This document shows positions 2 through 26,505 of a stretch of 36,906 nt of DNA, piece by piece. This stretch comes from Planctomycetota bacterium (lineage in GTDB: Bacteria > Planctomycetota > UBA8108), in assembly GCA_046582735.1 (NCBI GenBank), contig JAYGDV010000127.1:1-36906 (forward strand), given 5' to 3'. The notes under the pieces were generated by a model. It was given only the letters and a program-made list of their open reading frames with translations, was not told where the DNA came from and searched no databases. Within the stretch, counting starts at the first letter, position 1; every line of letters starts with the position of its first letter. A program made the translations under genes and the position numbers.

Positions 2-2236
2 TCCGGACTGGCCACCAGCCGCAGCATTGTTGCCCAGGATTCCTGTGCTGAGGCAGCGGGAATCGGTATAGAGACCATCAACGGCTCCACGCGGGGCGCT
101 CCCCGTGGTGGGGAGTCTGATTGTGGACGCTCCGACAACAGCCCGTCTCACTGGTTTAGATTTACCGCTGAAACCGGCACCCGGATGATGGTCAGTACCT
201 GCGGAAGTGACTTTGATACGGTCCTGTCGGTCTATTCCGGATGTCCGGGCGATGAAATCAACGAGATCACCTGCAATGATGATGCCTGTGTCGCGGGATC
301 CAGGCAGTCCGATGTGGAGTTTGATGCGACTGCCGGGGAGGAGTACCTGATTCGTCTTGCCGGGTACCGTGGTGATACGGGTGACTATACTCTCGAGGTG
401 GCTTCAGAGGGAGATGCCCCCGGGCCGGGCCCCGAGCCGGTGAATTGTGAAGACGTGCAGGAGGTAGGTATCACGGATACAGTGGAGGGGAGCACCTCCG
501 GGTTGAAAAATACCGGCAGCGCATCCTGTGGCAGCTCCACCCGCAGTCCGGATGCGATCTTTCGCCATGTCGCCACGCAGGTCTGTCTGCTGACCCTCAG
601 CACCTGCGGCAGCGATTATGACACCGTGCTCTCGATCCATTCCGGGTGTCCGCCTACCGAGGAGAACGAGCTTGCCTGCAATGATGACTCCTGTGCTCTC
701 CAGTCAACTGTCGGCTATGAGGTCGAGGCCGGCGAAAGCTACTGGATCCGAGTCTCCGGTTACAACGGCGCGAGTGGGAATTTTACTCTTGGGCTCAGCT
801 GTGCGGAGCCGCCACCTGTGGGGGATGGGGCGGATATCACCATCTCGAGCATGAGCAACATCAGGCAAATGAGCCGTCTCTCAGAGGTGGTATCCATTTC
901 CATGCAGTCGACCATCTGCAATATGGGCAGCGAGTCGGTGGACTGGTACGGCAACCCGGACCCGAGGCATCCTTTCCTCGTCTTCAACCTCTACCGTATG
1001 CAGGAGGGGCGCCTCGAGCAGATCGGGCAGTCGTGGGCGAAGCATGGTTTCGCGGCCTCGCAGACCAGCGGAGTTTGTGGACTGACCTGTCGCCGGGACC
1101 CGGATGGGAACCTGGGATCGGGTTGTGCCGACATCTACGGTGTAAGCACGAATGCGTCGCAGAGGACCTTCGGTCCGCGCTACGAGATCAATCCGTGGAC
1201 AGGAGAGTACACCTACGCGGGCTCACATATCGACACCACCAGCTCGAATCATAACCCGATCCAGCATCGCCTTACGGCGCGGGATGCCGATATCGATCCC
1301 ACGGCGAATCCGGATGCACAGTACTTTGTCGAGCTGTTCACGCTTTCCCACGATGACACAGATCACACCAACAGCCTTGGATGGCAGGAGATTGATATTT
1401 CCGGCAGTCCCGGTGGCGAATGGGATTTTGATTTCCGACAGGTGATCGGCAACCAGGGGCCTGCGATGGATGCCTGGGAGGGCGGCAGCCGGACGGTTAT
1501 TCCAGAAGGCAAGCTGGTCGATGATGGCCGCTGCTACCTGGATGTCCATGTCAGCGAGAACGCGGACGGGACCTACCACTATGAATACGCGCTCTACAAT
1601 CTTGATATGCATCGCTCGGCTTCGTCCCTTTCGATCCCGGTCGGGGCGGATGTGACCGTCAGCGGTATTGGCTTCAGCGCGGTCGAGTCAGCAGGGGACG
1701 GTTTCAACAACGCTCCCTGGGGCGCCGCGCGAGATGCCTCGGGAGTGACCTGGTCGACGAGCTCCTTTGCTGAGCATCCCGACTCCAATCCTCTTGGCTG
1801 GGGCAGCCTGTACAATTTCTGGTTTGATGCGAACGTGGCACCTGGAGACGGGGGAGCGACACTCGGTGTTTACAGGACGGATATTGAAGGACCGGCCTCC
1901 TTTTCGGGCATCACCCGTGTTCCGGGGGAGGGCGCCTTGCCGCCTCCGGAGGGGGACCTCTTCCGCCGCGGCGATACAGATGGAAACGGCTCGGTGGAAT
2001 TGACCGATGCGATCCTGGTACTGGACTATCTTTTCCAGGGTTCCCGCGCGCCGGGGTGCCTCGAGACGGCCGACAGTGACGATAACGGAAAGGTTGATAT
2101 CTCCGATGCCATCCGCCTGCTGGGCTGGCTCTTCCTCGGTGGTGAGCCCCTGCCAGCGCCGGGGGCACAGGAGTGTGGGCGGGATCCGACGCCGAGCAAT
2201 TTCGCTGAATGTGTCTATGATTCTGCAAGTTGTTGA
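2..2236 (+). CDS. large exported protein, 5'-truncated at the window edge: two tandem Cys-rich PPC-like repeats, a ~400-aa central domain of unknown function, and a C-terminal dockerin/EF-hand-like pair
   Basis: The frame is open from nt 2. The upstream translation (SCAEAAGIGIETINGSTRG...SDCGRSDNSPSHWFRFTAETGTRMMVSTCGSDFDTVL) is a copy of the second repeat (NCEDVQEVGITDTVEGSTSG...LLTLSTCGSDYDTVLSIHSGC...CNDDSC...YWIRVSGYNGASGNFTL). The true start therefore lies upstream of the ATG at 185. The C-terminus has GDTDGNGSVELTDAILVLDYLF and DSDDNGKVDISDAIRLLGWLF Ca-binding-like loops. Confidence 0.85.
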   Translation, partial: SGLATSRSIVAQDSCAEAAGIGIETINGSTRGAPRGGESDCGRSDNSPSHWFRFTAETGTRMMVSTCGSDFDTVLSVYSGCPGDEINEITCNDDACVAGSRQSDVEFDATAGEEYLIRLAGYRGDTGDYTLEVASEGDAPGPGPEPVNCEDVQEVGITDTVEGSTSGLKNTGSASCGSSTRSPDAIFRHVATQVCLLTLSTCGSDYDTVLSIHSGCPPTEENELACNDDSCALQSTVGYEVEAGESYWIRVSGYNGASGNFTLGLSCAEPPPVGDGADITISSMSNIRQMSRLSEVVSISMQSTICNMGSESVDWYGNPDPRHPFLVFNLYRMQEGRLEQIGQSWAKHGFAASQTSGVCGLTCRRDPDGNLGSGCADIYGVSTNASQRTFGPRYEINPWTGEYTYAGSHIDTTSSNHNPIQHRLTARDADIDPTANPDAQYFVELFTLSHDDTDHTNSLGWQEIDISGSPGGEWDFDFRQVIGNQGPAMDAWEGGSRTVIPEGKLVDDGRCYLDVHVSENADGTYHYEYALYNLDMHRSASSLSIPVGADVTVSGIGFSAVESAGDGFNNAPWGAARDASGVTWSTSSFAEHPDSNPLGWGSLYNFWFDANVAPGDGGATLGVYRTDIEGPASFSGITRVPGEGALPPPEGDLFRRGDTDGNGSVELTDAILVLDYLFQGSRAPGCLETADSDDNGKVDISDAIRLLGWLFLGGEPLPAPGAQECGRDPTPSNFAECVYDSASC
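44..802 (+). repeat. intragenic tandem duplication: two ~120-aa PPC-like Cys-rich modules (about 44-400 and 443-802) joined by a GPGPEP linker
   Basis: Shared motif order in both copies: C...C...STCGSD(F/Y)DTVLS(V/I)(Y/H)SGC...E(I/L)xCNDD(A/S)C...(Y)xIR(L/V)(A/S)GY.G..G(D/N)(Y/F)TL. Confidence 0.8.
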
Positions 2237-3006: not shown

Positions 3007-5628
3007 TCAGTTATTTGCCACAACCGCCACCGCAGGCTGCGTGCCGTGACTGGCGGTCTCAAACGAGCTGGTCCATTTTTCCCAGTCCGCTTTCGCGGTA
3101 TTGACAGCCGCTTCCGCCCTGGCCGCTTCTGCCGTGGCCTGCTTGAGTTTGTCTCCCATGGCCTTCAGTGTAGCCAGCTCCTTGCCGAGTACGGATCTGA
3201 GCTCGGTGCCCCTGGCAGCAACGGCCTGTACCTGCCTGTTACTTTCCTCGAGGGCCTTGAGGGAGCTGGCGAGGGCGTCGGCAAGACTGCCGGAAGACTC
3301 CTTCAGGTCCGTAATCAGCTTGCCGGCCTGCTCGGGGTTGCTGAGTTCAAGAGTATCCGTGCCGGCGATGATCTCGGCGGCCTTGCTGGATGAGCCGACA
3401 GCTTTCTCGAGCAGGCTTTTCGCCACCGCCGCCGCGCTCTCTGCCGCTTTCCGTGTATCTTCCGCGCTGGCCTTGATCTGCCCCTGGAGGTTCTTGATCC
3501 GCAGTGCGGCTTCACGGGCGGCAAGCTTGTTTTCTTCGACAGCGACCAGGGTGGTGTTGTGTTCTTTGCGCCGCTGGGCAAGGACTTTCAGCGCCTTGTC
3601 AATCTCTATGGCGGCCTTCCACTTTCCTGAGCGGGCATTAGCCGCCTGGAGACGGGCATTGGCCTCGTCCAGTGCGCCCTTCTGGCTCGAGGCGGCCTCG
3701 CCGGCTGATTTCGCCTGCGCCGTCAGCTGGCTGAGGCGTGCCCGGGCTTTGCTCATCGTACCACTGGACTCATCCAGTGCGGCCTTGGAGACAGCTCTCT
3801 GTTCGAGAGCCCTCGACACCTCGGCGGCCAGCCCGGCGGCTTTTTTCTGTGCCGCCGCCAGCGCCTGGGCGCTTGCCGTGAGCTGGGCCTCATCCTTTTT
3901 CTCTGCCGCAGCAAGCTTTCCATGCTCTTCCTCCTGCCTGGCAAGTGTCGCCAGGGCCTCCTTGAGGCCGGTGGACGCATTGTCAGCCAACTCACGGTTT
4001 TTCTTCAGGTCACCGGCTGCTGCTGCCGAGGCCGCTTCCGCCGTTTTCGCGGTCCCCTCTGTCTTTTCGAGCTCGGCCTGCAGGTTGCGGACAGCGGTGA
4101 GCAGGCGGTTCTGCTCGGCTGCCAGCTTGCTGTGCTCAGCCTTGATTGCCACGAGGGCGGTCTCCGCTTCTTTTGAACGCTGGATGAGCGAGACGGGGTT
4201 CAGGGGGAGCAGGGCAATCCGTTTGCCGTCAGTAGCGCTCCACATTCGGACCTCGCCGTTCCAGTCGCCGGCGATAACCCGCTTACAGGTATGGTCGACC
4301 GCCACCCGCAGCGCGAGGTCACTGAAAGCCTCAAAGGCACGCTGCTGTTTTCCGTTCTGGTCCCAGAGCTTCGCCACCCGGTCCCGGCCGCAGCTCACCA
4401 GCTGGCCATTGCGATGAAATTGCATGGCCAGTGTTCCACCGCCGTGGGCATTCCAGCTGCGGATCTGGCGGCCATTCTCCATCTCCCAGAGACGGATGGT
4501 TGAATCCTCGCTGGCGCTGGCGAGGATGTTCGAGTCGCCCCTCCAGCTCACCGAGGTGACCGGGCCGCCATGGCCTTGCAGGGCCAGGTATTCCCGCCCG
4601 GTAAAAGACTCCCAGATATGGAGGCCGCCGTTGCGGTCTCCGGAGGCCAGCAGCACCCCATCGGGACTGAACTCGAGGGAGAAGATCCAGTTGGTGTGTT
4701 TCTTGATGTCGTGCAGCAGCTCCCCATCGCTGGTGGAATAGATTCTCAGCATCCTGCTGGAGCCGCCTATAGCCACCATGCTGTGGTCGCTGGAGATGTC
4801 GGCAGCGAGAACGGAGTCGTATTCATCGCCGATTTCAACGATTCTTTCTCCCGTACGGACGCTCCATACGACCACCTTGCCTGAATGGGCTCCGCGTCCG
4901 CCTCCGGCCAGCAGGAGCCCGGCGTTGCGGCTGAATTTCAGGATATGAGCAGTGCCTTCAGGAAACGGCAGCACCCCGGCCAGCTCGCTGGTCTCGGTAT
5001 TGTAGAGAAGCACCTGCTTTTGCCCAGCCACCGCCAGCAGGGGAGCCCAGGGGCTGCAGGCCATCGCCGTTACGGCGCTGGTCTGTTGTGTTCTCACCAC
5101 CGGCTCCAGGCTCAATCCCCTGGGCATTGGTGGCGGGCCTTCAGGCTTCGCAGTGGGCTCGCTTACTGACAGCTCGAGCCTGGGCTTTGCAGGTAGTTTG
5201 ATCTTGCTGCTCTTGTTCTCCGGCGCGCCTCCTGCGATCCATTTTCTGACGGTTTCCAGGATTCCGCCGGCGAGCTTACCGCCCTTCGGCGGCATGTGGG
5301 GCTCTTCGAGGTGGGAGATGAGAGCGAAGAGGCGGCTCGAGTCCGGCTCCCCGGGCTTGATCACCTTCCCGGAGCTGCCGCCCTCCATTGCCAGGCCGTA
5401 GGTGTTGAGAGCCAGGCCGCCTTTCTTGCGATCCTGGTTGTGGCATTTGGAACATTGCGAGCGGAAGATCTCGGAGATGTGGTCATCGTAGGTGATCCGT
5501 GCAGCCTTGGCTGCCGCCTCTTCACCTTCTGCCCGGGCATCGGCCGATGGCAACAGGAGCCCGGCCAGCACGAGGAGCAGGAGCGCGGCTTGAGTTTTTC
5601 CGCCGAGATGGGAGCTGCAGGGAGTCAT
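3007..5628 (-). CDS. exported PSCyt1 (planctomycete cytochrome c-like) - WD40 beta-propeller - long Ala-rich coiled-coil protein
   Basis: N-terminal signal ALLLLVLAGLLLPSADA. PSCyt1-type motif IFRSQCSKCHNQDRKKGGLAL with CxxCH. WD40-like blades: HTNWIFSLEFSPDGVLLASGDRNGGLHIWE and GHGGPVTSVSWRGDSNILASASEDSTIRLWE. The last ~390 aa are an A/K/E/L-rich heptad-like sequence. Start is 11 bp after the stop of the upstream gene. Confidence 0.9.
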   Translation of the reverse strand: MTPCSSHLGGKTQAALLLLVLAGLLLPSADARAEGEEAAAKAARITYDDHISEIFRSQCSKCHNQDRKKGGLALNTYGLAMEGGSSGKVIKPGEPDSSRLFALISHLEEPHMPPKGGKLAGGILETVRKWIAGGAPENKSSKIKLPAKPRLELSVSEPTAKPEGPPPMPRGLSLEPVVRTQQTSAVTAMACSPWAPLLAVAGQKQVLLYNTETSELAGVLPFPEGTAHILKFSRNAGLLLAGGGRGAHSGKVVVWSVRTGERIVEIGDEYDSVLAADISSDHSMVAIGGSSRMLRIYSTSDGELLHDIKKHTNWIFSLEFSPDGVLLASGDRNGGLHIWESFTGREYLALQGHGGPVTSVSWRGDSNILASASEDSTIRLWEMENGRQIRSWNAHGGGTLAMQFHRNGQLVSCGRDRVAKLWDQNGKQQRAFEAFSDLALRVAVDHTCKRVIAGDWNGEVRMWSATDGKRIALLPLNPVSLIQRSKEAETALVAIKAEHSKLAAEQNRLLTAVRNLQAELEKTEGTAKTAEAASAAAAGDLKKNRELADNASTGLKEALATLARQEEEHGKLAAAEKKDEAQLTASAQALAAAQKKAAGLAAEVSRALEQRAVSKAALDESSGTMSKARARLSQLTAQAKSAGEAASSQKGALDEANARLQAANARSGKWKAAIEIDKALKVLAQRRKEHNTTLVAVEENKLAAREAALRIKNLQGQIKASAEDTRKAAESAAAVAKSLLEKAVGSSSKAAEIIAGTDTLELSNPEQAGKLITDLKESSGSLADALASSLKALEESNRQVQAVAARGTELRSVLGKELATLKAMGDKLKQATAEAARAEAAVNTAKADWEKWTSSFETASHGTQPAVAVVANN

Positions 5629-5639
5629 GGTTCTGTTTT

Positions 5640-8081
5640 TCAGTGATTGAAGAGGAATTCCCGGGAGTTGAGCAGAGACCAGAAGAGGTCATCGAGAAAC
5701 TCTTTAGGGCTCGGGGCCGAGGCAAGGATCGCCTTCAGCCCCGCCAGCTCCTTTTCGACCGGCTTGCGCGAGAAGCAGCGGATGTAGAGCTCTTCGATGA
5801 TTTGTTCCGGGGTCTTTTTCGCATCGAGCATCCCCTTGATGAGACCGCCGGCGCTGATCTTTCGTTCAACGGTATCGCCATTGAGCAGGTGAAGCGCCTG
5901 CGACAGGTTGGGCTCCATCTGGACCTCGCAGGAGCATACGGTTTCGCGCTTGGCGCGGCCGAAGGCCTGCAGGAAATAGTTGGTGGTGGATCCATCTGCG
6001 ATCTGCACCGCCCGGGCCCCCTTTGGGAGACCGCGGAACTTGTTGCTCGTATTGGTTACCTGCGTGATGCAATCGAGGAGGATTTCAGAGCGGATCCTGC
6101 GAAGCGACGCATGCGAGAAATTGCGAGTGTCCGACTCGTTTGACTTGTTGGTCTGGGTGGCGAACTGGTAGGTTCTCGAGGTGCAGATGTCTCGAACCAG
6201 GCGCTTGAAGTCATATTTGTATTCCGTGAAGCGCCGCCCGAGCTCTCCGAGAAGCTCGGCATTGGCTGGAGGGTTGCTGACCCGGACATCATCGACCTCG
6301 TCAATGATTCCCTTGCCGAAGAAGTGCGCCCAGACCATGTTGGCAAGGTTGGTGGCGAAGAATGGGTTTTCGCTCGAGACCAGCCATTCGGCCATCGCCA
6401 CCCTCCGGTCTTTACCCTTCAGGTCCGGGGTCGTGCCACCGAGGAACTTGGGTTTCATGACCCTGTTGCCGACAGGGTGGCGCACCTCGCCGCCGCGGGA
6501 GTTGAAGACGATGGTCTCCCTGGGATCTTCGGCGCGTTTTCGGCCGATCTGGGAGAAGAACGAGGCGAAGCCGTAATAATCATTCTGGGTCCATCGATCG
6601 AATGGGTGGTTGTGACATTGGGCGCACTGGATCCGCATGCCCATGAACACCTGGGCTACGTTCTCTGTGACCTTCAGGGTGTTGGTCTCATTCTGGTAGT
6701 AATTGGTGGCCGGGTTTTTGAAGGTGCCGCCGCTGGCGCCAAGGAGTTCGCTGACCATCTTGTCCATAGGCACATTGTTGGCGATCTTCTCCTGCAGCCA
6801 GTTGTAGTAAAGCAGCATGGCTTTGTAGCTCACCTGCTGGGAGGACCGGATCTGCAGGAGCTCTGCCCACTTCATGACCCAGAGCTCCACGAATTCTTTC
6901 CTTCCAAGCAGTTCATCGACGAGCTTTGAGCGCTTGTCTTTTTCTTCGCTCGAACTGAAGCGTGCGTATTCCTCCGTAGTGGGCAGGAGGCCAATGATGT
7001 CGAGATACGCCCGCCTCAGGAAGACCTCGTCAGAGCAGAGCCCGGATGGGGCCACCCGCAGCTTCTGGAGCTTTTCCTTGATCAACTTGTCGACATAGTT
7101 GTTTTCCAATACCTGGGGAAATTCGAATTCGAGGTCCTTTGGAAGAACGATGAAATGGCTACCGACGGTGAAGGTGGCGAAGCGCGCCATGATGAAGGCT
7201 TCCCCCCTGGCTCCGGCGCTCACGAGACCTTCCTGGGAGACCTTCGCCGAGGTGTCATTGTTCGAAAGGAAGTAGGCGAGGCTGGTTACGTCCCGGGTGC
7301 TGCCGTCGGAATACGTTGCCCGTACCGTCAGCTTCTGGGTTGCCCCGCTGCCGTTGAGAACGGCATTGGGGGGATAGAACTCGATCCCGGTCGGGTGGGG
7401 GAGGTCCGCAGGGTCGCGCGGGGCCCTGGCCTCCAGCCAGCGCACAAGCGTTCCGTAGAGCTCGGAGTCCTTTTCAAATCGTTTTCCACCGGTATGGCTG
7501 ACCCTTCCGGCACTCTTTTCAAGGATGAGGCTGTCATGAACGAGCGCGAGGTTGAGCCGCCGGCCGTTGAGCTCCCGTGTCAGGCGGTGGTAGTCCCCAT
7601 CCGGGTCGAAACCGAAAAGGGACAGCCTGAAGCCGTCCTTGCCGCGGGCGGCGCCATGGCAGCTTCCGGTATTGCAGCCCACCTTCATGAAGACGGGCAT
7701 GACATCAAGCTTGAAGCTGATGGCCCTGTCGAGGGCGGCATCCTTGACCGTAATCGGCAGAGCGATGGATTTACCCTCGAGCTCGATTCGGAGCTCGGTG
7801 GTGCCATCTTTAACCGGTAGTACGCTGCCGCCTTCGAGTTTTGCCAGGGCCGGGTCGGCAAGGGTGTATTTCGCCTCGGAGGTAATGTCCCGGGTCAGGC
7901 CGTTTGAATAGAGAGCCTGGACAATCACCGACTGGCGGTCCCGCCGGGTGCTGAGCTCGATATCCCCGGGATAGGCAGTGATCTTCACCAGGTCGGCGGC
8001 GTCGATGGGCTCGCCGGGGCAGAGGATCCCTGTTAGAAAGGTGAGGACAGACAGCAATGGGAGATGTCTTGTTATTTTCAC
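5640..8081 (-). CDS. exported PSCyt2 (DUF1549) / PSD1 (DUF1553) domain protein with an N-terminal Ig-like segment
   Basis: Signal peptide LPLLSVLTFLTGIL. Ig-like stretch ITAYPGDIELSTRRDRQSVIVQALYSNGLTRDITSEAKYT. DUF1549 hallmark GCNTGSCHGAARGKDGFRLSLFGFDPDGDY. CAQCHNHPFDRWTQNDYYGFASFF (CxxCH). DUF1553-type C-terminus ending LLNSREFLFNH. Confidence 0.9.
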   Translation of the reverse strand: MKITRHLPLLSVLTFLTGILCPGEPIDAADLVKITAYPGDIELSTRRDRQSVIVQALYSNGLTRDITSEAKYTLADPALAKLEGGSVLPVKDGTTELRIELEGKSIALPITVKDAALDRAISFKLDVMPVFMKVGCNTGSCHGAARGKDGFRLSLFGFDPDGDYHRLTRELNGRRLNLALVHDSLILEKSAGRVSHTGGKRFEKDSELYGTLVRWLEARAPRDPADLPHPTGIEFYPPNAVLNGSGATQKLTVRATYSDGSTRDVTSLAYFLSNNDTSAKVSQEGLVSAGARGEAFIMARFATFTVGSHFIVLPKDLEFEFPQVLENNYVDKLIKEKLQKLRVAPSGLCSDEVFLRRAYLDIIGLLPTTEEYARFSSSEEKDKRSKLVDELLGRKEFVELWVMKWAELLQIRSSQQVSYKAMLLYYNWLQEKIANNVPMDKMVSELLGASGGTFKNPATNYYQNETNTLKVTENVAQVFMGMRIQCAQCHNHPFDRWTQNDYYGFASFFSQIGRKRAEDPRETIVFNSRGGEVRHPVGNRVMKPKFLGGTTPDLKGKDRRVAMAEWLVSSENPFFATNLANMVWAHFFGKGIIDEVDDVRVSNPPANAELLGELGRRFTEYKYDFKRLVRDICTSRTYQFATQTNKSNESDTRNFSHASLRRIRSEILLDCITQVTNTSNKFRGLPKGARAVQIADGSTTNYFLQAFGRAKRETVCSCEVQMEPNLSQALHLLNGDTVERKISAGGLIKGMLDAKKTPEQIIEELYIRCFSRKPVEKELAGLKAILASAPSPKEFLDDLFWSLLNSREFLFNH

Positions 8082-8096
8082 GATGTTACTGGGCCC

Positions 8097-10649
8097 TCAG
8101 GACCCTTCTTCTTTGTTCTTCTTGAATTGCAGGCGAAGCTTTTCCAGCCGGGTAAGGCGTTTCTTGGGCGGCGCCTTTGGAGGCGGCGGAGGTTTCGGTT
8201 TCTCGACCTTCTTGACCACCTTCGGCGGCGGTTTTTTCTTGGGTTTCGGCGGCGGCAGGGGCTTATCGATTCGCAGCTCGGTGCCGCCGGTGGAATGAAC
8301 GATGGACTCGCCGCTTTCAATGATTTCAACACGGCAGGCAATGGTTTTGTGTTTTCCCGCGGGGCTGTCCTTGGCGACTGTGACCTTGAAGGTAACCTCC
8401 TTGGTGTTTGCGTCGATTTCCATTCCCGGGGCCTTGACGTTATGTGGCAGTCCGAAGAGGCTCAGCCGGGCCTTGCCCTCGAATTTTGTACGCTGGTTGA
8501 TCTTGCAGTAGATCTCGGTGTCCTTGCCCTGCTCCGCCGAGGTTTTCTCTGCGGCAAGATCGATGTAGGGCTCCGCTACGCGGAGGGTGGCGAGCTGTGA
8601 GCTTGCCCAGATCCCGCCGCTGGAGCCGTTGACGGCAATCTTCCAGGCCCTCACCTGGGCTCCTCCGTTTGCATTCAGGCTGATGAAGGCTTCGAGCTTG
8701 TCCTTCGGGATATTGACGCCACGCTGCGAGGTGACTCCCGGAGGATTGAAGACCATCTGCAGTGCGATGGGGGCGGTGAAACCCTCCTTGCGTTCAACTA
8801 CGATCTTGAGAGCCATTGACCCGTTGCGAACGAGGGGCACCTTGGGCTCGATAATCTGCAGTTTGAAGGGCGCCTCCTCGGTAACCGCCACAGCCAGCCC
8901 TTTGAGGGTGTGCTTCAGGTATACCGACTGTCCGGGGTTGCCGACCAGGAGATCGATACCGATACGGAAACCGCCGCTGATGTTCTTTTTCTCATCAGCA
9001 TGCTTTGCGCGAACGTCACAGATTTTTCCAGACAGGGGGGCATCGGCGGCGGCCTCGAAGAGCACAGGGATGGTTGTCAGGTTCGCCGGCATGTTTTCAC
9101 CCTGGATGGCGATACCCGCGGGGAGATCGGCGCAGCTGAAGGCCAGGTCCCCGCCGAAGTTCTGCCTGCTGACGGAGACCAGGGCAGTGTAACGGTTCCC
9201 CCTGGGAACGGAGATCGACTGGCGCTCCTGGGAATACCTTCCTACCCGTGGGATCGTGAGGCTGAGGGCGGGCTTTACCGGTGTCAGCTCGAAGCGGTAT
9301 ACGTAATCCGGGCCGCCTTTTCCCAGGTGGTCTCGTACTGTCAGGACGTATTCCTTGGTCTCCGGGGCGGTGAAGCGGAAATAGCTGTCCGGCCCGCGCG
9401 AGTCGTCGTTTCCGGCGAGTCCTTTGCCGGAAAAGTGAGCGATGTTGATTACAGAGTCCAGCGGAGAGCGAATCCTGCGGCCGTAGAGCTCCACCTCGAA
9501 GACCTGGCCCTTGTTGGCTTTGAACCTGAAACAGTCGATGTCGCCGGGCTCGGAGATGATCCCGTTGAAGGCTCCGGGGGCGGTTGCGACAGTGGCCTTG
9601 GCGTGGTTGTTGTTGGGCTCGACCTCCAGTGTGTTTTCGTATTCGCTGAGTCGAAAAACATTCATCGAGGGGGACACCCCCCCCTCATCCTCGAGATGCA
9701 GTCCAAAGTCCTCACGGGCAGCCGGGGGAAGGGTAATCTTCTGTTTGCGGTCCCCACCTGCATCGCCGAGGTAGCTGATCTCGATTTCGGAACCTGCCTT
9801 TGCACCTGCGGGAAGCAGCCCCCTCGGGCGCGGAAAAGTTCCGACATGCAGGCGGTAGCGGCAGTTTCCGTTTCCTCCGTAGGAGCTCTCGCGAACCTGC
9901 ACATAGTAGCTTCCATCCTCGGGAGCGATCACCTGGCAGGTTGAGTCCTGGCGCAGCAGGGCGGAATCGTCTGAAGAGGCGATTTCGAAGCGGGCAGCAT
10001 TCATGATGGCGATATAGGGATCGAAGACCGTACTGCCCAGCCGCATCGCTTCGATCTCGGCGGAGATCCGCTGCCCTTTCTTTACCTCGAAAGTGTAGTA
10101 GTCGACATCCTCGCTCTGAACGATACCGTTTACGGTTGAATTGAGAGAGATTTTCTGTGGTGCGGCAAAGTCACTGTTGGGTTCCTTTTCGGCGACCTCC
10201 GCCAATGAGCCGACAAAGAAGGTCTTCATGTCGGAGATTCCGGTGGCGGTGCGCAGGCGCATTGCGTGGACGCCCAGGCGGCAGTCAGCAGCGATCTTGA
10301 CCCTGGCGAGGACATGCTTGGGATTGGTTACCTTGAATTCAACAAGGCTGAAGCCCGGAGAATAAAAGAGGATCTCCTTCACATCTGCCAGCCGGTCGCC
10401 GTTGAAGTTCACCTCCAGCTCGGTTCCACGCTGTCCTCCGCGGGGAATGATGGAGCCCAGTGATGGAGAGGCGGCCTGCAGGATGCCGGCGGTGAGCAGC
10501 AACAGGCAGGTGGCGCAAAACAACCGGGCGCTCAGCCACCGGGGTTTTCCAGTTCTTGTTTTACCGGGCAGGGGCATAAGAATACTTTCTGTTGACCTTG
10601 GATTCGTTCTTTCCTTGGCCAGGGGCCGATAAGGCGGCTCCCTGTGCAT
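8097..10649 (-). CDS. exported protein with two PPC (pre-peptidase C-terminal) domains, Ig-like/beta-rich middle region and a Lys/Pro-rich C-terminal tail
   Basis: Hydrophobic signal LFCATCLLLLTAGILQAAS. PPC-like blocks: EPNSDF...VNGIVQSEDVDYYTFEVKKGQRISAEIEA...DPYIAIMN...DDS...YYVQVRE, and EPNNNHAKAT...FNGIISEPGDIDCFRFKANKGQVFEVELY...NDDS...YVLTVRD. Tail: PLPPPKPKKKPPPKVVKKVEKPKPPPPPKAPPKK. An alternative start at 10577 (MPLPGKTR...) would remove a 24-aa N-terminal extension. Confidence 0.85.
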   Translation of the reverse strand: MHREPPYRPLAKERTNPRSTESILMPLPGKTRTGKPRWLSARLFCATCLLLLTAGILQAASPSLGSIIPRGGQRGTELEVNFNGDRLADVKEILFYSPGFSLVEFKVTNPKHVLARVKIAADCRLGVHAMRLRTATGISDMKTFFVGSLAEVAEKEPNSDFAAPQKISLNSTVNGIVQSEDVDYYTFEVKKGQRISAEIEAMRLGSTVFDPYIAIMNAARFEIASSDDSALLRQDSTCQVIAPEDGSYYVQVRESSYGGNGNCRYRLHVGTFPRPRGLLPAGAKAGSEIEISYLGDAGGDRKQKITLPPAAREDFGLHLEDEGGVSPSMNVFRLSEYENTLEVEPNNNHAKATVATAPGAFNGIISEPGDIDCFRFKANKGQVFEVELYGRRIRSPLDSVINIAHFSGKGLAGNDDSRGPDSYFRFTAPETKEYVLTVRDHLGKGGPDYVYRFELTPVKPALSLTIPRVGRYSQERQSISVPRGNRYTALVSVSRQNFGGDLAFSCADLPAGIAIQGENMPANLTTIPVLFEAAADAPLSGKICDVRAKHADEKKNISGGFRIGIDLLVGNPGQSVYLKHTLKGLAVAVTEEAPFKLQIIEPKVPLVRNGSMALKIVVERKEGFTAPIALQMVFNPPGVTSQRGVNIPKDKLEAFISLNANGGAQVRAWKIAVNGSSGGIWASSQLATLRVAEPYIDLAAEKTSAEQGKDTEIYCKINQRTKFEGKARLSLFGLPHNVKAPGMEIDANTKEVTFKVTVAKDSPAGKHKTIACRVEIIESGESIVHSTGGTELRIDKPLPPPKPKKKPPPKVVKKVEKPKPPPPPKAPPKKRLTRLEKLRLQFKKNKEEGS

Positions 10650-10695
10650 AAGAACCCTCTCATAGAAGAAAGAAGGGCTTTACCTCCGGCTCTCC

Positions 10696-11997
10696 TCAGG
10701 CGAGGAGCTCTTTGCGAACCTTGCCGCCATCGCAGATCTCTATGGGCCGATCACCCGGCGCCATGAGCTCCTTGTCGGCGACGATGCCCAACTGGTGGTA
10801 GATCGTGGTTGCCCAGTCAGCTACCGTCAGGGCATCTTCCTCGGGCTCGGTGGCTGTCGCATCGGACTTTCCGTAGATGAACCCTTTCTTGATTCCTCCA
10901 CCAGCCAGGACGATGCTGAACACCTTGGGCCAGTGATCCCTTCCCGCGTTTCCATTAATCTTGGGAGTGCGCCCGAATTCCGTCGTCACCACGACGAGGG
11001 TCGAGTCGAGCAGTCCCCGTGTTTCCAGGTCCCTGATCAACCTGGCGAAGGCCTGGTCGAAGGGGGGCATCTGGCCTCTCATGGAATTCCGAATATTGTT
11101 GTGCATGTCCCAGCCCCCGTAGGTCAGGGTGACAAAACGCACCCCTGCTTCGACCAGTCTCCTGGCCAGCAGGAGTCTCTGCCCGGCAGCGTTGCGGCCG
11201 TATTCGTCACGGAGCTTGGCGGGCTCGGCGTTGATGTTGAAGGCCTCCTTGGCCTCCTTGGAGCTGATGAGGCCATAGGCCCTCTGGTAGAAGGTGTCCA
11301 TGGCCTCGAGGCCGTCGGATTTTTCTGTTTCCTTGAAGTGGGAGTTGACCGTCTCGAGGATCGAGCGCCGTCGGTTGAAGCGCTCCGATTTGATCCCGCC
11401 GGCAAGATTGAGATCACGGACCTTGAAGCTGCCGCTGGCCGGATCGCTGCCGAGGCTGAAGGGCGCATAGGACGAGCTCAGGTAGCCGGATCCTGCGAAG
11501 GTATTGGGTTGTCCCGGTATACAGACATAGGGCGGCAGGCTCTTGCGTGGGCCGAACTCGTGTGAAACGATGCTTCCCATGCTGGGGAATACGAGTGCCG
11601 GGCTCGGACGGTAGCCGGTGAACATATTGTGCGTGCCCCGTTCGTGCGCCGCCTCTCCGTGGCTCATAGATCGCACAACGGTGATCTTGTCGGCCACCTG
11701 GGCAGTTTGTTTCATGACCTCGCCGTAGCGCACGCCAGGCAGCTTGGTGCCGATATTGCCCAGCTCGCCGCGGTAGGCCAGGGGGGCATAGGGCTTGGGA
11801 TCAAAGGTGTCCTGGTGCGCCATCCCGCCGGGCATGAAGATGTTGATGACCGACTTGGCGGGGCCTTCCTTGCTTTCGTAAAACTTCTGATCGGCGTTGG
11901 CGGACTTGATGCGGAAGTACTGGTCCAGGGTAAGACCGAGGCCACCGATGGCGCCGACCGTGAGGAAATCACGCCGGCTTGATTTATTGATCTTCAT
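10696..11997 (-). CDS. DUF1501 family protein (sulfatase/alkaline-phosphatase-fold) with a twin-arginine export signal
   Basis: MKINKSSRRDFLTVGAIGGLGL matches the Tat consensus S-R-R-x-F-L. The body is DUF1501-like: FMPGGMAHQDTFDPKP, GWDMH, TTEFGRTPKIN...GRDHWP. Confidence 0.9.
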   Translation of the reverse strand: MKINKSSRRDFLTVGAIGGLGLTLDQYFRIKSANADQKFYESKEGPAKSVINIFMPGGMAHQDTFDPKPYAPLAYRGELGNIGTKLPGVRYGEVMKQTAQVADKITVVRSMSHGEAAHERGTHNMFTGYRPSPALVFPSMGSIVSHEFGPRKSLPPYVCIPGQPNTFAGSGYLSSSYAPFSLGSDPASGSFKVRDLNLAGGIKSERFNRRRSILETVNSHFKETEKSDGLEAMDTFYQRAYGLISSKEAKEAFNINAEPAKLRDEYGRNAAGQRLLLARRLVEAGVRFVTLTYGGWDMHNNIRNSMRGQMPPFDQAFARLIRDLETRGLLDSTLVVVTTEFGRTPKINGNAGRDHWPKVFSIVLAGGGIKKGFIYGKSDATATEPEEDALTVADWATTIYHQLGIVADKELMAPGDRPIEICDGGKVRKELLA

Positions 11998-12066
11998 CTG
12001 GAGTCTCCAGGTGCCTGTCTGTAAATAAAGAATGAACCGAATGAGAGATCTTCGCGTAACTTCAAG

Positions 12067-12096
12067 ATGCTAAGTCACTTGTATGAAACAGGTCAA
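12067..12096 (-). promoter_or_regulatory. candidate sigma70-type promoter for the DUF1501 operon
   Basis: On the minus strand: TTGACC (12096-12091), an 18-nt spacer, then TAGCAT (12072-12067). It sits in an AT-rich 198-bp gap about 70 nt upstream of the DUF1501 start. Motif match only. Confidence 0.3.
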
Positions 12097-12195
12097 TAAA
12101 TTTACCGGGTTGTATTTGGCGGGCGGATGGGGAGAAAAGGGGCCTTGTTGGACACGATGATGTTCAAGGGGGGCTTATAGGCCTTTGAGAGCCTT

Positions 12196-13296
12196 TCAGA
12201 AGGCGATTACGCCCCGCGCTGTCTTTCCCTCGAGCATGTCACCATAGGCGGTATTGATCTCCTCGAGGGGGTAGGTCTTTGATACCAGCCTGTCGAGGTC
12301 GAGTTCCCCACGGAGGTACATTGCGGCATAACGAGGGAAGTCCCTGTGGGGGTCGCAGGAGCCGTAGTAGGAGCCGAGAATGATTTTTTCCTGTCGGGTA
12401 ATGACCGATCCGGGGAAATTTGTTTCTGTTCCTGTGGCTGAGAGGCCGACGAGGATGAGCTTTCCCCCGGGTCGAACAGAATCGAAAGCCGTCTCCTGGA
12501 CTTTCGTGGAGCCGGTCGCCTCGAAAACGTAATCGGCACCACGTTGCCCCGTGGCTGCGATGATGTTTTCGTGCGCCCGCTCATCTGCCTTGAATGCGTG
12601 GGTCGCTCCGAAGGAGCGTGCCAGCTCGAGCTTCTCTTCCCAGAGGTCCACGCAGATGAGAGGACCTGCCCCTGCCAGCCGCGCTCCGGCCAGTATGCTC
12701 AGCCCGACTCCTCCCATTCCGTAGATCACCACCGAGGCGCCCTCTTCGACCTTGACGGTGTTCATCGAGGCGCCGAGACCGGTTGTGACCGCGCAGCCGA
12801 TCAAGGCTGCGACCTCCAGCGGGACCTCCTTGTCGATGGGGACGCAGCAGGCCTCGGGAACGACAGCGTACTCGGCAAAGCAGGCTAGGGCGCAATAGTG
12901 GTAGACCGGCCTGCCGTCAAGCGACAGGCGGGTTGTTCCATCGAGGAGAGTTCCTGCCCAGAGCGCTTTTTTCCAGGTCTCGCAGAGGGCCGGCCGCCTG
13001 TCGGAGCAGTAAAAACAGGAGTCGCACCCCGGTGCCCAACTCAGCGCGACATGGTCGCCCTGCCTGAGCGAGGTGACTCCTTCTCCGAGGGTTTCGACGA
13101 CCCCGGCGCCCTCGTGTCCCACCGCCGCGGGCAGGGGGTGGTCGGTTCCCCCGGTACGTATATGCCAGTCACTGTGGCAGATGCCCGCAGCGCCGATTTT
13201 CACCAGCACTTCTTTTTTGCGTGGTGGGTCGAGGTCGAGAGTTTCGATCTCGAAGGGTTGCCCCGTTTTTTTGACAACAGCTGCCCGGATCTTCAT
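12196..13296 (-). CDS. zinc-dependent alcohol dehydrogenase family (class III/MDR-like)
   Basis: GICHSDWH and GHEGAGVVETLGEGV catalytic zinc motifs. Structural-zinc Cys cluster CDSCFYCSDRRPALC. Rossmann motif VVIYGMGGVGLS. Confidence 0.9.
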   Translation of the reverse strand: MKIRAAVVKKTGQPFEIETLDLDPPRKKEVLVKIGAAGICHSDWHIRTGGTDHPLPAAVGHEGAGVVETLGEGVTSLRQGDHVALSWAPGCDSCFYCSDRRPALCETWKKALWAGTLLDGTTRLSLDGRPVYHYCALACFAEYAVVPEACCVPIDKEVPLEVAALIGCAVTTGLGASMNTVKVEEGASVVIYGMGGVGLSILAGARLAGAGPLICVDLWEEKLELARSFGATHAFKADERAHENIIAATGQRGADYVFEATGSTKVQETAFDSVRPGGKLILVGLSATGTETNFPGSVITRQEKIILGSYYGSCDPHRDFPRYAAMYLRGELDLDRLVSKTYPLEEINTAYGDMLEGKTARGVIAF

Positions 13297-15453: not shown

Positions 15454-16593
15454 TCAGCCGCCGTTATCGATGCCCATTTCCTCGAGAATACTGGCGATGG
15501 CGGCCAGCAGGTTTTGAACATCTTCTTCCTGGATGCGGCCGATGTTGCCGATACGGAAGCAGTCTGCGTTGCTGACCTTGCCCGGGTAGATCACCAGCCC
15601 CCTCTCGCTCAGCCGGGTGTAGAACTCCGTGAAATCAAAGGCCGGATGGGAGGGGTAGCGGAAGGATGTGATGATGTAGCCCTGGTCTTCCCGTGCCAGG
15701 TATTCTTTGAAGCCCAGCTCGCTCATCCCCCGCACCAGGGTTTCGTAGTTTCCGCGGTACCGCGCAGCCCTCCCGCCAACACCGCCTTCTTCGACGAGCT
15801 CCGCCAGGGCCTTCTCAAAGGCAAGGATTGTGTGGGTCGGTGGCGTGAAGCGGAACTGGCCGTTGGACTCGAGTCCCTTCCATTGAGCGAAGAGGTCCAG
15901 GCTCAGGCTGCGGGCCTGCCCTTCGCAGGAGTCGAGCGCCCCGCTGCGGCAGATGGCGAATGAGAATCCGGGTACACCCTCTATGCACTTATTGGCCGAG
16001 GAGACCAGGAAGTCGATCTCTGCCGCCTGGACATCGAGCTCAACCGCTCCGAAGCTGCTCATCGCATCGACGATGTAGGTCTTTGCGGCTGCGCGGACAA
16101 CCGAACCGGTTTCCTCGACAGGATTGATGATCCCGGTAGTCGTCTCGCAATGGACGATGGCCACAGCAGTGATGCTCTCATCCTCCTGCAGGCACCTGGC
16201 GACCTCGGCCGGATCGGTCTTCCTGTTTTCCTCACAGCGAAGGGCCTCGCACTCAATCCCCAGCACCCCGGCTATTTTCAGGATGCGTTCACCATAGGAG
16301 CCATTGACCACCACCAGCAGCTTGCCGCCGGGAGTGATTGCAGAGCCTATAACCGCTTCGACCCCGAAGGTGCCGCTGCCCTGCATGAGCACGCATTCAT
16401 AGCCCTGTTCCTGTGACAGCCCGGCAAGCCCGAGGAGCCCGTCGCGGATCTTGCCGATGGTCGCGATAAATGCCGTATCGCGCGAGCCGAGGTCTCTCAG
16501 CATAGCCTGCTTTACCGGCTCACTGGTCGTCAGTGGGCCGGGGGTAAAGAGGAGCTTGTCTTTTCTTCCGCTGTTGTGCCCGGGGCTGGTCAT
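15454..16593 (-). CDS. phnW: 2-aminoethylphosphonate:pyruvate aminotransferase
   Basis: The class V aminotransferase body starts KLLFTPGPLTTSEPVKQAMLRDLGSRD, and the PLP-Lys region is SSANKCIEGVPGFSF. I place the start at ATG 16593 (MTSPGHNSGRKDK...), which has AAGGAG 10 nt upstream and lies 20 bp after the phnY stop. The ORF-track start at 16722 would overlap phnY by 109 nt. Confidence 0.85.
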   Translation of the reverse strand: MTSPGHNSGRKDKLLFTPGPLTTSEPVKQAMLRDLGSRDTAFIATIGKIRDGLLGLAGLSQEQGYECVLMQGSGTFGVEAVIGSAITPGGKLLVVVNGSYGERILKIAGVLGIECEALRCEENRKTDPAEVARCLQEDESITAVAIVHCETTTGIINPVEETGSVVRAAAKTYIVDAMSSFGAVELDVQAAEIDFLVSSANKCIEGVPGFSFAICRSGALDSCEGQARSLSLDLFAQWKGLESNGQFRFTPPTHTILAFEKALAELVEEGGVGGRAARYRGNYETLVRGMSELGFKEYLAREDQGYIITSFRYPSHPAFDFTEFYTRLSERGLVIYPGKVSNADCFRIGNIGRIQEEDVQNLLAAIASILEEMGIDNGG

Positions 16594-16613
16594 TTCGGCT
16601 TCGTCTCCTTTTC

Positions 16614-18029: not shown

Positions 18030-19282
18030 GTCTGGCTCCCGTTGCTGGTGAACTCGAATATATCGAAGTTTCGCAGATCTCCTGTTCTGCAGGAATACGC
18101 CGCGGTGATTTTTTCTGAGAGAAAGAATGGCACCATCTCTTCGTAACGCCCGCCGTGGGAGCGCAGGCCATCTCGTACAGCATCGAGATCATGGTCCTCC
18201 GGAGTTCTGCCAAGGACGACATCCCGCCCCGACTGGACGACGATGTCGCCGATCCGGTCTACAGGCAGCTCGAGTTTGCGAGCCGCTACCTGTCGATCGT
18301 AAGCCTCGGTGACTCCATCGAGCTCGAGCAGCCGGGCGATAACTGTGCGGGTGTCGGTGGAATCCGGAAGGTGTACACAGGCGAGCGAGCCGAGAGCCCC
18401 GTGGTGGAGGACATAGGGGTCGGTGATGGGCAGGATGACCTTGACCCCGTTGCCGAGTTCCTGCTGCAGAAGACTCTCAAGGTAGATTACGTTGGGCTCC
18501 CCCGCGGGCGTCTGCTTGGCGTTCATCCCATGGTCTGCGGTCGCGCCGACAATAGCGCCAAGTTCGAGTAATCTCCCGAGCTCGCTGTCGATGGCGCCAT
18601 AAAAATCAAGTGACTCCGGATCCTCCGGCCTGAATTTATGCTGCATATAATCGGTCAGGGAGAGGTAGAGGAAGTCGGCCTTCCCGTGTTCGATAAGTGC
18701 CGCCCCCGCCTTGAGAACGAAGAGGCTGGCAGCCGCGCTGTAGATCTCCGGGACCGGCTCTCCCACCAGAGCCTCCACCCCCGAGATGCCATGGGTGCCC
18801 TCTTCCGCCTGGTCCGCCTTTTCCGCTGAGAAGGCGATTCCCTCGAGTTCATGGGAGAGAATATCCCTGAGCTTCTCCTTTGCCGTGACCATAGCGACTT
18901 TTCGCCCGGCGTTGGCGGCCGCCGCCAGGATGGTCCCGCAGCGGAGATAAGATGGAGAATTCATCATTACTTCCTCGCCGGATTCCGGATCGAGAAAGAA
19001 GTTGCCGCTGATCCCGTGAACGGAGGGAGGGGTGCCGGTTGCAATCGATGAGTTGTTGACGTTGGTGAAGGAGGGCAGGGCGCCCCGGGCCATAGCGCGG
19101 TAGGCGCCTGCAGCAAGAAGACGTGCCAATACAGGCATACGCCCCTGTACCAGCGAGACGTCAAGGTATTCGTCAGCGCATCCATCGATGCAGATCACCG
19201 CCAGGGGCCGCGCTGGTGGCCGGTAGGTCCTGCCATTTACGGAGAATTCTTTGGTGGCGGGGGCTGTTTTACTGGAATCCAT
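18026..19282 (-). CDS. phnA: phosphonoacetate hydrolase (alkaline phosphatase superfamily)
   Basis: 418 aa. N-terminus VNGRTYRPPARPLAVICIDGCADEYLD and SFTNVNNSSIATG are typical of phosphonoacetate hydrolase/nucleotide pyrophosphatase-fold enzymes. It forms an operon with phnY and phnW. Confidence 0.8.
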   Translation of the reverse strand: MDSSKTAPATKEFSVNGRTYRPPARPLAVICIDGCADEYLDVSLVQGRMPVLARLLAAGAYRAMARGALPSFTNVNNSSIATGTPPSVHGISGNFFLDPESGEEVMMNSPSYLRCGTILAAAANAGRKVAMVTAKEKLRDILSHELEGIAFSAEKADQAEEGTHGISGVEALVGEPVPEIYSAAASLFVLKAGAALIEHGKADFLYLSLTDYMQHKFRPEDPESLDFYGAIDSELGRLLELGAIVGATADHGMNAKQTPAGEPNVIYLESLLQQELGNGVKVILPITDPYVLHHGALGSLACVHLPDSTDTRTVIARLLELDGVTEAYDRQVAARKLELPVDRIGDIVVQSGRDVVLGRTPEDHDLDAVRDGLRSHGGRYEEMVPFFLSEKITAAYSCRTGDLRNFDIFEFTSNGSQT

Positions 19283-26383: not shown

Positions 26384-26449
26384 TTCAAAGCTCCTTTCAA
26401 AAGGTTCCTGAAAAGTATAGAGAAGAGTTAGGGTCTGAAAAAGTGATGG

Positions 26450-26479: not shown

Positions 26480-26505
26480 AAGTGTCGAGAAAAACACCAG
26501 AACTT

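Follow-up and report, generated by a model that had tools for sequence, protein, structure and literature searches.

A planctomycete operon very likely orthologous to a published four-gene DUF1501 module, with putative haem c domains and long scaffold proteins

Results and discussion

Gene organization of the locus

The window analysed in this work, meaning the whole stretch of 36,906 nucleotides, belongs to contig JAYGDV010000127.1 of a Planctomycetota bacterium (assembly GCA_046582735.1). It contains four consecutive minus-strand genes, here called G1 to G4 from 5' to 3', whose products show export signals of the twin-arginine translocation (Tat) or general secretory (Sec) type. Open reading frame (ORF) analysis, Pfam and a promoter scan, the latter combined with an alignment of five relatives, gave the following features.

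10696-11997 (-): G1, Tat-exported DUF1501 protein, 433 aa (PF07394, E 9e-116)
8097-10649 (-): G2, Sec-exported stalk protein with immunoglobulin-like (Ig) and PPC domains, 850 aa (PF04151 in two stretches)
5640-8081 (-): G3, Sec-exported protein with Ig, CX4CH, Big_2, PSCyt2 and PSD1 domains, 813 aa, GTG start (Pfam)
3007-5628 (-): G4, Sec-exported protein with PSCyt1, WD40 and coiled coil, 873 aa (Pfam)
12067-12096 (-): sigma-70-like promoter candidate TTGACC-18 nt-TAGCAT, in the 198-bp gap 5' of G1

The gaps G1/G2, G2/G3 and G3/G4 measure 46, 15 and 11 bp, and the 198-bp gap has a GC content of 47%, while the operon and the window are each at 60%. By count, promoter-like sites were at chance level in the sequence scan (2 observed, 1.9 expected). 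In the alignment of the five relatives, TTGAC, the 18-nt spacing, TTAGCATC and GGAG were found to be invariant blocks, while the surrounding intergenic DNA had diverged; GGAG is the ribosome-binding site located 8-9 nt 5' of the G1 ATG. Terminator-like hairpins, including those at the gene junctions, were not more frequent than chance in the scan, and Rfam matched no RNA family in the window. The conserved promoter footprint, the short gaps (11-46 bp) and the junction terminators at chance frequency together support a single operon layout. A previous annotation made from the letters alone, called here the sequence-only reading, had described the gene spacing, the AT-rich upstream gap with its promoter-like element and a probable single transcript, and these three points agree with the ORF coordinates, the GC content and the conserved footprint.

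The first gap may be longer than annotated. Since all G2 orthologues start at the position of Met25 in the alignment, the true G2 start may be M25, at about 10577, which would give a gap of about 118 bp and not 46 bp.

Conservation and synteny of the module

In a G2-profile scan of one-genome-per-species GTDB contigs, more than 481 loci were confirmed. Eighty of them were kept, and colinearity was evaluated by tblastn of the four window proteins against these loci. The genes G1-G2-G3-G4 were found in the same order and on the same strand in 51 of the 52 loci having enough flanking DNA. The G4 orthologue was always the fourth gene in the loci compared, and the four-gene module occurred once per fetched locus. 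Median identities to the window proteins were 71% (G1), 52% (G2), 66% (G3) and 50% (G4) over 48 loci that exclude the close relatives of the window, whereas paralogous DUF1501 or PSCyt2/PSD1 genes at the same loci were about 25-40% identical. The order was also kept in Opitutae and other Verrucomicrobiota loci, at 57, 41, 54 and 40% identity for G1, G2, G3 and G4, respectively. The closest relatives of the window are marine metagenome-assembled genomes (MAGs) such as UBA1146, UBA1662 and UBA8108, with G2 identities of 86-93%.

The surroundings of the module behaved differently. In the complete Tuwongella immobilis genome and in an 8.7-Mb contig the same four genes have entirely different neighbours, and the flanking genes are not conserved in distant relatives. 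The zinc-type alcohol dehydrogenase gene upstream of the operon (12196-13296, minus strand) is syntenic in close relatives, where its 3' end aligns, and not in distant ones. No universal fifth gene was found. In one clade of seven loci (L042, L049, L066, L067, L069, L070 and L072) a PSCyt2/PSD1 paralogue of 600-670 aa follows 3' of G4; it is about 28% identical to G3, lacks the N-terminal Ig/haem part, and accompanies a G4 of the short, roughly 700-aa class. In locus coordinates this gene is found near 17.5-18 kb, except in L070, where it is near 11.3 kb. The ORFs 3' of G4 are otherwise mutually unrelated. In L020, L030 and L077 paralogous DUF1501 and PSCyt2/PSD1 ORFs adjoin each other.

Genes for DUF1501, PSCyt and WD40 proteins are so numerous (24 DUF1501 and 17 DUF1549 in Planctopirus limnophila; 41 copies each of the PSCyt2 and PSD1 domains in R. 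baltica) that a chance adjacency of members of massively expanded families, forming no functional unit, deserved consideration. Such an adjacency is refuted by the synteny count, and its probability can be taken as practically nil: order and orientation are kept in 51/52 loci and in Verrucomicrobiota despite the differing flanks, the four genes form their own orthologous groups with 50-71% identity across orders against about 30% to paralogues, and the intergenic gaps are only 11-46 bp. Counting the co-occurrence of the four families, as proposed with the sequence-only reading, thus revealed a colinearity beyond chance that extends to Verrucomicrobiota. Because the module is conserved, the four proteins very probably constitute one functional unit, as judged from these comparisons.

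Relation to the published module

The sequence-only reading had described a defined four-part module. This is not a new observation, as a four-gene cluster with the same architectures and order had been described in Verrucomicrobium spinosum and other species of the Planctomycetes-Verrucomicrobia-Chlamydiae (PVC) group (Kamneva et al. 2012, Genome Biol Evol, PMC3542564). There, gene 1 encodes DUF1501, sometimes with a twin-arginine signal, gene 2 has one or several weak PPC domains, uncharacterised conserved regions and a signal peptide, gene 3 is PSCyt1/Big_2/PSCyt2/PSD1, and gene 4 is PSCyt1/WD40 (PMC3542564). All four architectures, in the conserved order and strand, were found in the window; the PSCyt1 element of gene 3 was recovered in G3 by hhalign (E 2.4e-5, probability 76%), with C-x4-CH replacing CxxCH. 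Given the same four architectures in the same order, the window operon is very likely an orthologous copy of this already known module, with which it also shares a PVC-restricted, vertically conserved distribution. The differences concern G3, in which the first cytochrome-like domain (C-x4-CH) escapes Pfam and an extra N-terminal Ig-like domain is present, and G4, whose long coiled coil is not mentioned in PMC3542564.

The cluster was found to correlate with internal-membrane cell plans (r = 0.852), and membrane targeting together with electron transport was proposed, the function being left open (PMC3542564). Later papers merely cite or restate the cluster. Literature searches on DUF1501, DUF1549, DUF1553, PSCyt and Plim_1448-1451 returned only descriptive papers with no established function, as the sequence-only reading had also held: the module is published, its function is not.

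The module can be compared with the generic two-gene pairs of DUF1501 and PSCyt(1)/PSCyt2/PSD1, which are expanded in Planctomycetes and Verrucomicrobia (Kamneva et al. 2012, PMC3542564; He et al. 2017, PMC5615132) and, as cited by later papers, were also the subject of Studholme 2004. The association of DUF1501 with PSCyt2/PSD1 was likewise reported by Kamneva et al. (PMC3542564). In both arrangements a DUF1501 gene with a Tat signal adjoins a PSCyt2/PSD1 gene, and G1 keeps all DUF1501-wide invariants. The module differs in having two more subunits (G2 and G4), in placing DUF1501 first and not second, in being single-copy per fetched locus, in its identity of about 70% against about 30% to paralogues, and in the extra G1 invariants described below.

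The window therefore brings no new kind of system; what it adds is the link to FoxE, a G1 with an alkaline phosphatase (AP) fold that is not a sulfatase, and the nearly complete invariance of the haem motifs. Few uncharacterised protein families in Planctomycetota and Verrucomicrobiota are as large as DUF1501, PSCyt and PSD1. Nowhere are they better conserved than in the four-gene version, which makes that version a natural entry point to the function of the superfamily.

Probable orthologues in Planctopirus limnophila

A transposon-directed insertion site sequencing (TraDIS) study of P. limnophila (PMC10632474, supplementary file 3) covers Plim_1448 (DUF1501), Plim_1449 (hypothetical), Plim_1450 (DUF1549) and Plim_1451 (WD-40 repeat), which reproduce the annotation order of the module. 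Plim_1449 is present in 37 Planctomycetes, 40 PVC and 2 other genomes, and Plim_1450 in 37, 39 and 2, respectively (PMC10632474). All four genes were classified as non-essential, with insertion indices of 0.157, 0.058, 0.052 and 0.077, while nearby genes called essential showed 0.003-0.007 (PMC10632474). All 24 DUF1501 and all 17 DUF1549 paralogues of this species are likewise "only non-essential" (PMC10632474). As the probable orthologues are dispensable, deletions and tagged pull-downs should be feasible in this genetically tractable species.

From the locus tags in PMC10632474 it was counted that 15 of the 17 DUF1549 genes lie at most two locus tags from a DUF1501 gene. This supports a general enzyme-partner relationship between DUF1501 and DUF1549. 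A second DUF1501/DUF1549 pair, Plim_2948/Plim_2950, has exactly one gene between its members, as in the module (PMC10632474); the insertion index of Plim_2948 is borderline (0.036, "unclear" under some parameter sets), and the pair may be a second, related spaced cluster.

Export signals

The sequence-only reading had assigned an export signal to every product, namely a Tat motif to G1 and hydrophobic Sec-type N-termini to the other three. Hydropathy and conservation gave the same picture. G1 starts with MKINKSSRRDFL and contains the twin-arginine motif SRRDFL, its RR.F core being kept by 95% or more of the 73 G1 sequences aligned. In G2, G3 and G4 hydropathy showed a single, strongly hydrophobic segment at the N-terminus and nothing transmembrane-like beyond it.

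11893-11997 (-): G1 twin-arginine signal peptide, residues 1-35 (SRRDFL, weak h-region, ANA|DQ; from translation, conservation and hydropathy)

SorAB, SoxCD and TorAC combine a Tat-exported cofactor enzyme with a Sec-exported c-type cytochrome subunit. By analogy, the module would present the same split of export routes between co-operonic genes; the fold is different, since G1 is predicted to have an AP fold and not that of a molybdo- or iron-sulfur enzyme.

The DUF1501 protein G1

G1 was modelled with AlphaFold2 with a mean predicted local distance difference test score (pLDDT) of 67 and a predicted template modelling score (pTM) of 0.73. Foldseek searches with the model retrieved only structures of the AP superfamily (LtaS; carrageenan, aryl and choline sulfatases; YejM), with E-values down to 8e-6. 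The C-terminal part aligned weakly with the metal-ligand region of sulfatases in sequence/profile comparison, and sequence/profile searches of the PDB returned no match for DUF1501. NCBIfam holds no family for G1, G2 or G3. No C/S-x-P-x-R formylglycine motif was found in the translation, and no Sulfatase match in Pfam. In an alignment of orthologues and four paralogues, G1 was found to retain every DUF1501-wide invariant (RR, H118, WD297xH299, EFGR and GRD354H355), and the module-specific G1 proteins carry an additional invariant stretch, HGEAAHERGTHNMFTGY. His118, invariant in the orthologues and the four paralogues, is located ten residues before a conserved TG, a position that we take to be the nucleophile site in sulfatases and nucleotide pyrophosphatases/phosphodiesterases (NPPs). 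A His would stand there in place of the Cys, Ser or Thr nucleophile.

The sequence-only reading had called this protein a sulfatase-fold enzyme. The fold part of that statement holds, as an AP-superfamily, sulfatase-like fold was retrieved; it should not be taken to mean a sulfatase, as the C/S-x-P-x-R motif is missing and an invariant His stands in its place. Compared with type I sulfatases, LtaS and YejM/PbgA, which are the only structures retrieved by the predicted fold, G1 is also distinguished by the lack of a Thr/Ser nucleophile, by Tat export and by template modelling (TM) scores of about 0.35. Rather than a sulfatase, G1 is probably another active AP-superfamily metalloenzyme, and it is the presumed catalytic subunit.

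These matches bear on an alternative in which the module forms a hydrolytic or transferase complex for nutrient acquisition or envelope remodelling and no electrons reach the enzyme. G1 would be a phospho- or sulfo-esterase, or an LtaS/EptA-like transferase, with a complex metal centre; G2, G3 and G4 would bind and present a polymeric substrate, and the CxxCH motifs would be structural or bind a non-redox metal or haem. All Foldseek matches of G1 (LtaS, sulfatases, YejM) are indeed hydrolases or transferases acting on esters or envelope lipids, and all AP-superfamily chemistry known to us is non-redox. The Tat signal would also be accounted for, as metal-centre enzymes such as PhoD and PhoX are exported by this route. 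The non-essentiality of the 24 DUF1501 and 17 DUF1549 paralogues of P. limnophila fits substrate-specific accessory functions. The conservation pattern speaks against it: with G1 at about 70% identity against about 30% for paralogues, and one copy per fetched locus, the module is far better conserved than its paralogues, unlike what is seen in substrate-diversified families.

The PSCyt2/PSD1 protein G3

Pfam identified PSCyt2 (E 3e-48), PSD1 (E 5e-38) and Big_2 (E 5e-6) in G3, besides a weak match to HL_N-beta (E 6e-6). Together with the model and profile comparisons, the following parts were delimited.

7746-7991 (-): N-terminal Ig-like beta-sandwich, residues 31-112 (PF21461, E 2.5e-7 on the isolated domain; pLDDT >90)
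7395-7730 (-): divergent PSCyt1-like domain, residues 118-229, with distal invariant His196 (hhalign against G4 PSCyt1)
7656-7676 (-): C-x4-CH motif GCNTGSCHG, within the PSCyt1-like domain
7191-7388 (-): Big_2 Ig-like domain, residues 232-297 (PF02368, E 5e-6)
6546-7094 (-): PSCyt2 (DUF1549) domain (PF07583, E 3e-48), with invariant QCAQCHNHPFD.W
5727-6407 (-): PSD1 (DUF1553) domain (PF07587, E 5e-38)

In the AlphaFold2 model (pLDDT 70.5), residues 31-112 and residues 230-313 each form an Ig-like sandwich predicted with confidence, the PSCyt2/PSD1 part is entirely helical, and confidence collapses at the CX4CH motif (137-179), at the CxxCH motif (481-497, pLDDT <50) and at 691-734. Foldseek returned only Ig-domain matches for the model and none for the helical part. 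Searches of sub-regions with Pfam at E <= 10 gave neither DUF1800 nor any other weak relative of PSD1. The Big_2 domain matched LigA/LigB and the Big_2 repeats of a teneurin-like protein in the PDB; the strong matches to the teneurin-like protein are confined to these repeats and were discarded as a lead for the whole protein.

Residues 118-229 gave no PSCyt1 match in Pfam, even at E <= 10. Aligned as a profile with G4 PSCyt1 by hhalign, they matched end to end (E 2.4e-5 to 5.8e-5, probability 66-76%), with a two-residue insertion in the haem motif of G3 and with His196 opposite H..EP.MPP of G4. A PDB search with the profile of this domain gave no matches except to designed Kelch-like "SAKe" proteins; these matched by way of a recurring "fDPdGD" string and were judged spurious. 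The sequence-only reading had listed CAQCH and GCNTGSCHG in this protein, and each of the two motifs, CX4CH and CxxCH (CAQCH), is present in 62/62 G3 orthologues.

The PSCyt1/WD40/coiled-coil protein G4

Three parts were recognized in G4, for which NCBIfam gave sub-threshold matches only.

5281-5454 (-): PSCyt1 domain, predicted mono-haem c, CSKCH ... HMPP (PF07635, E 8e-15)
4189-5091 (-): WD40 beta-propeller, about residues 180-480 (WD40, E 7e-32, and many beta-propeller families)
3010-4176 (-): coiled-coil stalk, residues 485-873 (389 aa; about 58 nm if fully extended)

In a PDB search the PSCyt1 profile matched the solved dihaem cytochrome FoxE (5mab, E 4.8e-8), with the CxxCH and MPP motifs aligned, and more weakly cbb3 CcoP and c551/c555. 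The CSKCH motif had been pointed out in the sequence-only reading, and CxxCH and MPP were found in 58/59 G4 orthologues. Proteins of the FoxE type bind haem covalently with His/Met ligands (PMC10654088). From this homology, a covalent haem is likely at least in G4.

The likeness to the photoferrotrophy operon foxEYZ (5mab; PMC10654088) includes the periplasmic location, predicted for the module, and the combination of a FoxE-type cytochrome with a beta-propeller. The cytochrome of G4 would contain one haem and is joined to a WD40 propeller in the same protein, whereas fox has a dihaem FoxE and a PQQ-type (pyrroloquinoline quinone) FoxY. No FoxZ-like transporter was found in the operon and G1-G3 have no counterpart in fox, so that only the homology of the haem domain holds; iron oxidation is not indicated for the module.

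Residues 485-873 showed a hydrophobic heptad periodicity of 3.5 residues with z = 9.3 relative to shuffled sequences (z = 1.1 for the WD40 control), a content of 25% Ala, and two Pro in 389 aa. From this periodicity and composition the G4 tail is a genuine coiled coil, and the sequence-only description of one product joining a beta-propeller with a coiled coil of about 390 aa was accurate. A 438-aa plus-strand ORF at 3101-4417, antisense to the coiled coil, was rejected as a Ser/Ala/Leu-rich mirror of its Ala/Glu/Lys codons; the AT skew is strong here (-0.35). Orthologues share no conserved sequence in the coiled coil. Their lengths (L009-L088) form two discrete classes, one of about 690-710 aa and the other of about 875-930 aa; a few outliers reach about 1120 aa, and the difference between the classes lies wholly in the tail. 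The class of about 700 aa includes loci labelled Gemmataceae/Gemmatales and Tuwongella.

For a hydrolytic or transferase complex, the invariance of three haem-type motifs across two phyla counts as a difficulty, and the homology of PSCyt1 to a genuine electron-transfer cytochrome would be unexpected if the domain were purely structural. The tail suggests another alternative, in which the module is mainly a structural envelope element: the G4 coiled coil and the G2 stalk would be tethers or spacers setting or spanning the enlarged planctomycetal periplasm, with G1 and G3 as accessory or maturation factors. A heptad coiled coil of 389 aa, extending over about 58 nm, and two discrete G4 length classes (about 700 against about 900-925 aa) are what such an element might show.

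The double-PPC protein G2

G2 has more than 5000 homologues, with 54-60% identity over the full length across planctomycete orders. Pfam recognized PPC (PF04151) in two stretches (E 9e-14).

9891-10109 (-): PPC domain 1, residues 181-253 (best Pfam stretch; invariant E154, E156, N158, D181, D183, D227, D228)
9285-9626 (-): PPC domain 2, about residues 342-455, approximate (second Pfam stretch; motif EVEPNNNH)
8100-8264 (-): Pro/Lys-rich linker (16 P, 17 K) followed by the C-terminal helix KRLTRLEKLRL

An invariant acidic motif, E-x-E-P-N, precedes PPC domain 1, and presumably resembles a Ca2+ site. In PPC domain 2 the alignment showed invariant E342, E344, P345, N346, D370, D372, D415 and D416, so that both domains have the E-x-E-P-N, D-x-D and D-D motifs. 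The profile of domain 1 matched the collagen-binding domain of a collagenase (5iku) weakly, at E 4e-4. G2 thus resembles the PPC and collagen-binding domains of clostridial collagenases in its two PF04151 stretches with E-x-E-P-N ... D-x-D ... D-D, and differs from collagenases in that no peptidase domain is present and the PPC domains are embedded in an Ig-rich protein of 850 aa. Residues 460-795 are conserved yet lack a Pfam match, and searches of sub-regions at E <= 10 gave no Pfam family for residues 60-157 or 456-797.

The sequence-only reading had reported two PPC domains and a TonB-like K/P tail. The first were recovered by Pfam. The tail is a Pro-rich linker, variable in sequence and P/A-rich in the orthologues, which terminates in a charged helix of 20-30 aa kept in 25/25 aligned orthologues. 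A TonB-like nature was discarded, as only the Pro-rich spacer is shared, the protein begins with a signal peptide and continues with Ig/PPC domains, and neither TonB_C nor another TonB family is among the Pfam matches.

The Ig, PPC and hyaluronate-lyase-N-like beta-sandwich modules of G2 and G3 are typical of polymer-binding exoproteins, and paralogous PSCyt proteins carry carbohydrate-binding modules (PMC3542564; He et al. 2017, PMC5615132), as a hydrolytic or transferase complex with a polymeric substrate would have it. With the weight given above to the haem motifs and to the conservation, such a complex is a possible explanation on which we would not bet. The structural explanation gains from the elongated multi-Ig build of G2, with its Pro-rich spacer and conserved terminal docking helix, and from the module's correlation with internal-membrane cell plans (0.85) reported by Kamneva. 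It is opposed by the finding that the enzyme-like G1 (about 71%) and G3 (about 66%) are the best conserved proteins, and not the stalks, whose coiled-coil sequence is not conserved. The complete active-site-like set of invariant residues in G1 and the tolerance of transposon insertions in the probable P. limnophila orthologues also disagree with it, and it is regarded as improbable.

Proposed function of the module

The favoured reading is that the published module encodes an exported complex centred on G1 and G3 that contains haem c and long scaffolds, and we put its probability at roughly 0.5; the assembly and the mechanism are those that we infer from the domains. An exported multisubunit complex as such appears rather probable. 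The four proteins would assemble in the periplasm into one complex. G1, with its AP fold and an active site rich in His, would be the catalytic subunit; Tat would export it in folded form, probably with its metal already bound, and this route may reflect cofactor loading in the cytoplasm. G3 may be the cognate partner of G1, the two representing the generic DUF1501-PSCyt2/PSD1 pair repeated many times per genome; CxxCH and CX4CH, the latter with a distal His, would be the two putative haem sites of G3. G4 would contribute a FoxE-like His/Met haem c domain fused to the WD40 propeller and to a coiled-coil stalk of 30-58 nm. G2 would act as an Ig/PPC stalk whose acidic motifs may bind Ca2+ and whose terminal helix, beyond the Pro-rich spacer, probably docks onto another subunit or envelope layer. 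Both scaffolds, G2 and G4, may position the G1-G3 catalytic core in the enlarged periplasm.

The G1-G3 unit would act on an extracytoplasmic substrate, modifying or cleaving a group of the phospho- or sulfo-ester type, and the c-type haems may relay electrons to or from this unit, or gate its activity by their redox state. The function would be conditionally useful and not essential. Redox-coupled catalysis is considered doubtful, because to our knowledge no redox enzyme exists in the AP superfamily.

Several observations weigh against the exported complex with haem c, or weaken parts of it. The locus L087 has, at 10001-12439, a G2 homologue of 50% identity that lacks G1, G3 and G4 as neighbours; this sole amply flanked exception could be genuine, or it could stem from a rearrangement or from a chimeric MAG contig. 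The Foldseek TM-scores of G1 are just about 0.35, so that residue-level mapping of the active site is tentative, and the AlphaFold2 models of G1 and G3, with pLDDT values of 67-70, reach only moderate confidence and are least reliable where the putative cofactor sites lie. Only the profile-profile comparison, with its probability of 66-76%, connects the CX4CH domain to PSCyt1. PSCyt2 and PSD1 gave no solved or annotated relative in fold and profile searches of the PDB, and the role of their CxxCH motif is putative. Plim_1448-1451 are probable orthologues according to annotation order and conservation profile, and not to sequence. The absence of any redox enzyme known to us in the AP superfamily weakens the step of electron transfer to G1.

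A more far-reaching version of the exported complex would be a PVC-specific periplasmic machine, driven or gated by redox state, composed of an AP-fold enzyme with a His-based multi-His metal centre, a short haem wire and a coiled-coil "ruler". The CX4CH domain of G3 and the PSCyt1 domain of G4 might pair like the cross-ligated haem domains of FoxE. The unit would be held at a set height, and the two classes of ruler, about 215 and about 400 residues long, might vary with the envelope architecture. This version is judged very unlikely. If true, it would add redox chemistry to the AP superfamily and give a role to hundreds of DUF1501/PSCyt genes.

Other features of the window

A phosphonate-catabolism-like gene run was observed at 15454-19282 (-) and 23659-24537 (-). 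It includes a class-V aminotransferase, an aldehyde dehydrogenase (E 7e-141) and a PF01663 protein of the phosphodiesterase/NPP family, and a gene of the phosphoenolpyruvate (PEP) mutase family is found 4 kb away. From their Pfam families we guess that these genes are PhnW-, PhnY- and PhnA-like. The first two ORFs of the run overlap at 16614-16722, so that one start codon is probably mis-set.

Two large proteins have dockerin-like matches: a 1192-aa protein with CotH kinase and lamin-tail domains and a weak dockerin match (33277-36855, minus strand), and a 683-aa protein (185-2236, plus strand). Such CotH/lamin-tail/dockerin-like architectures are unusual exoproteins for a planctomycete. The GC content, about 0.60 elsewhere, falls to 0.478 at 26001-27000, next to or within the gene of a 717-aa FHA-domain protein with a weak YscD-like match (26506-28659, minus strand).

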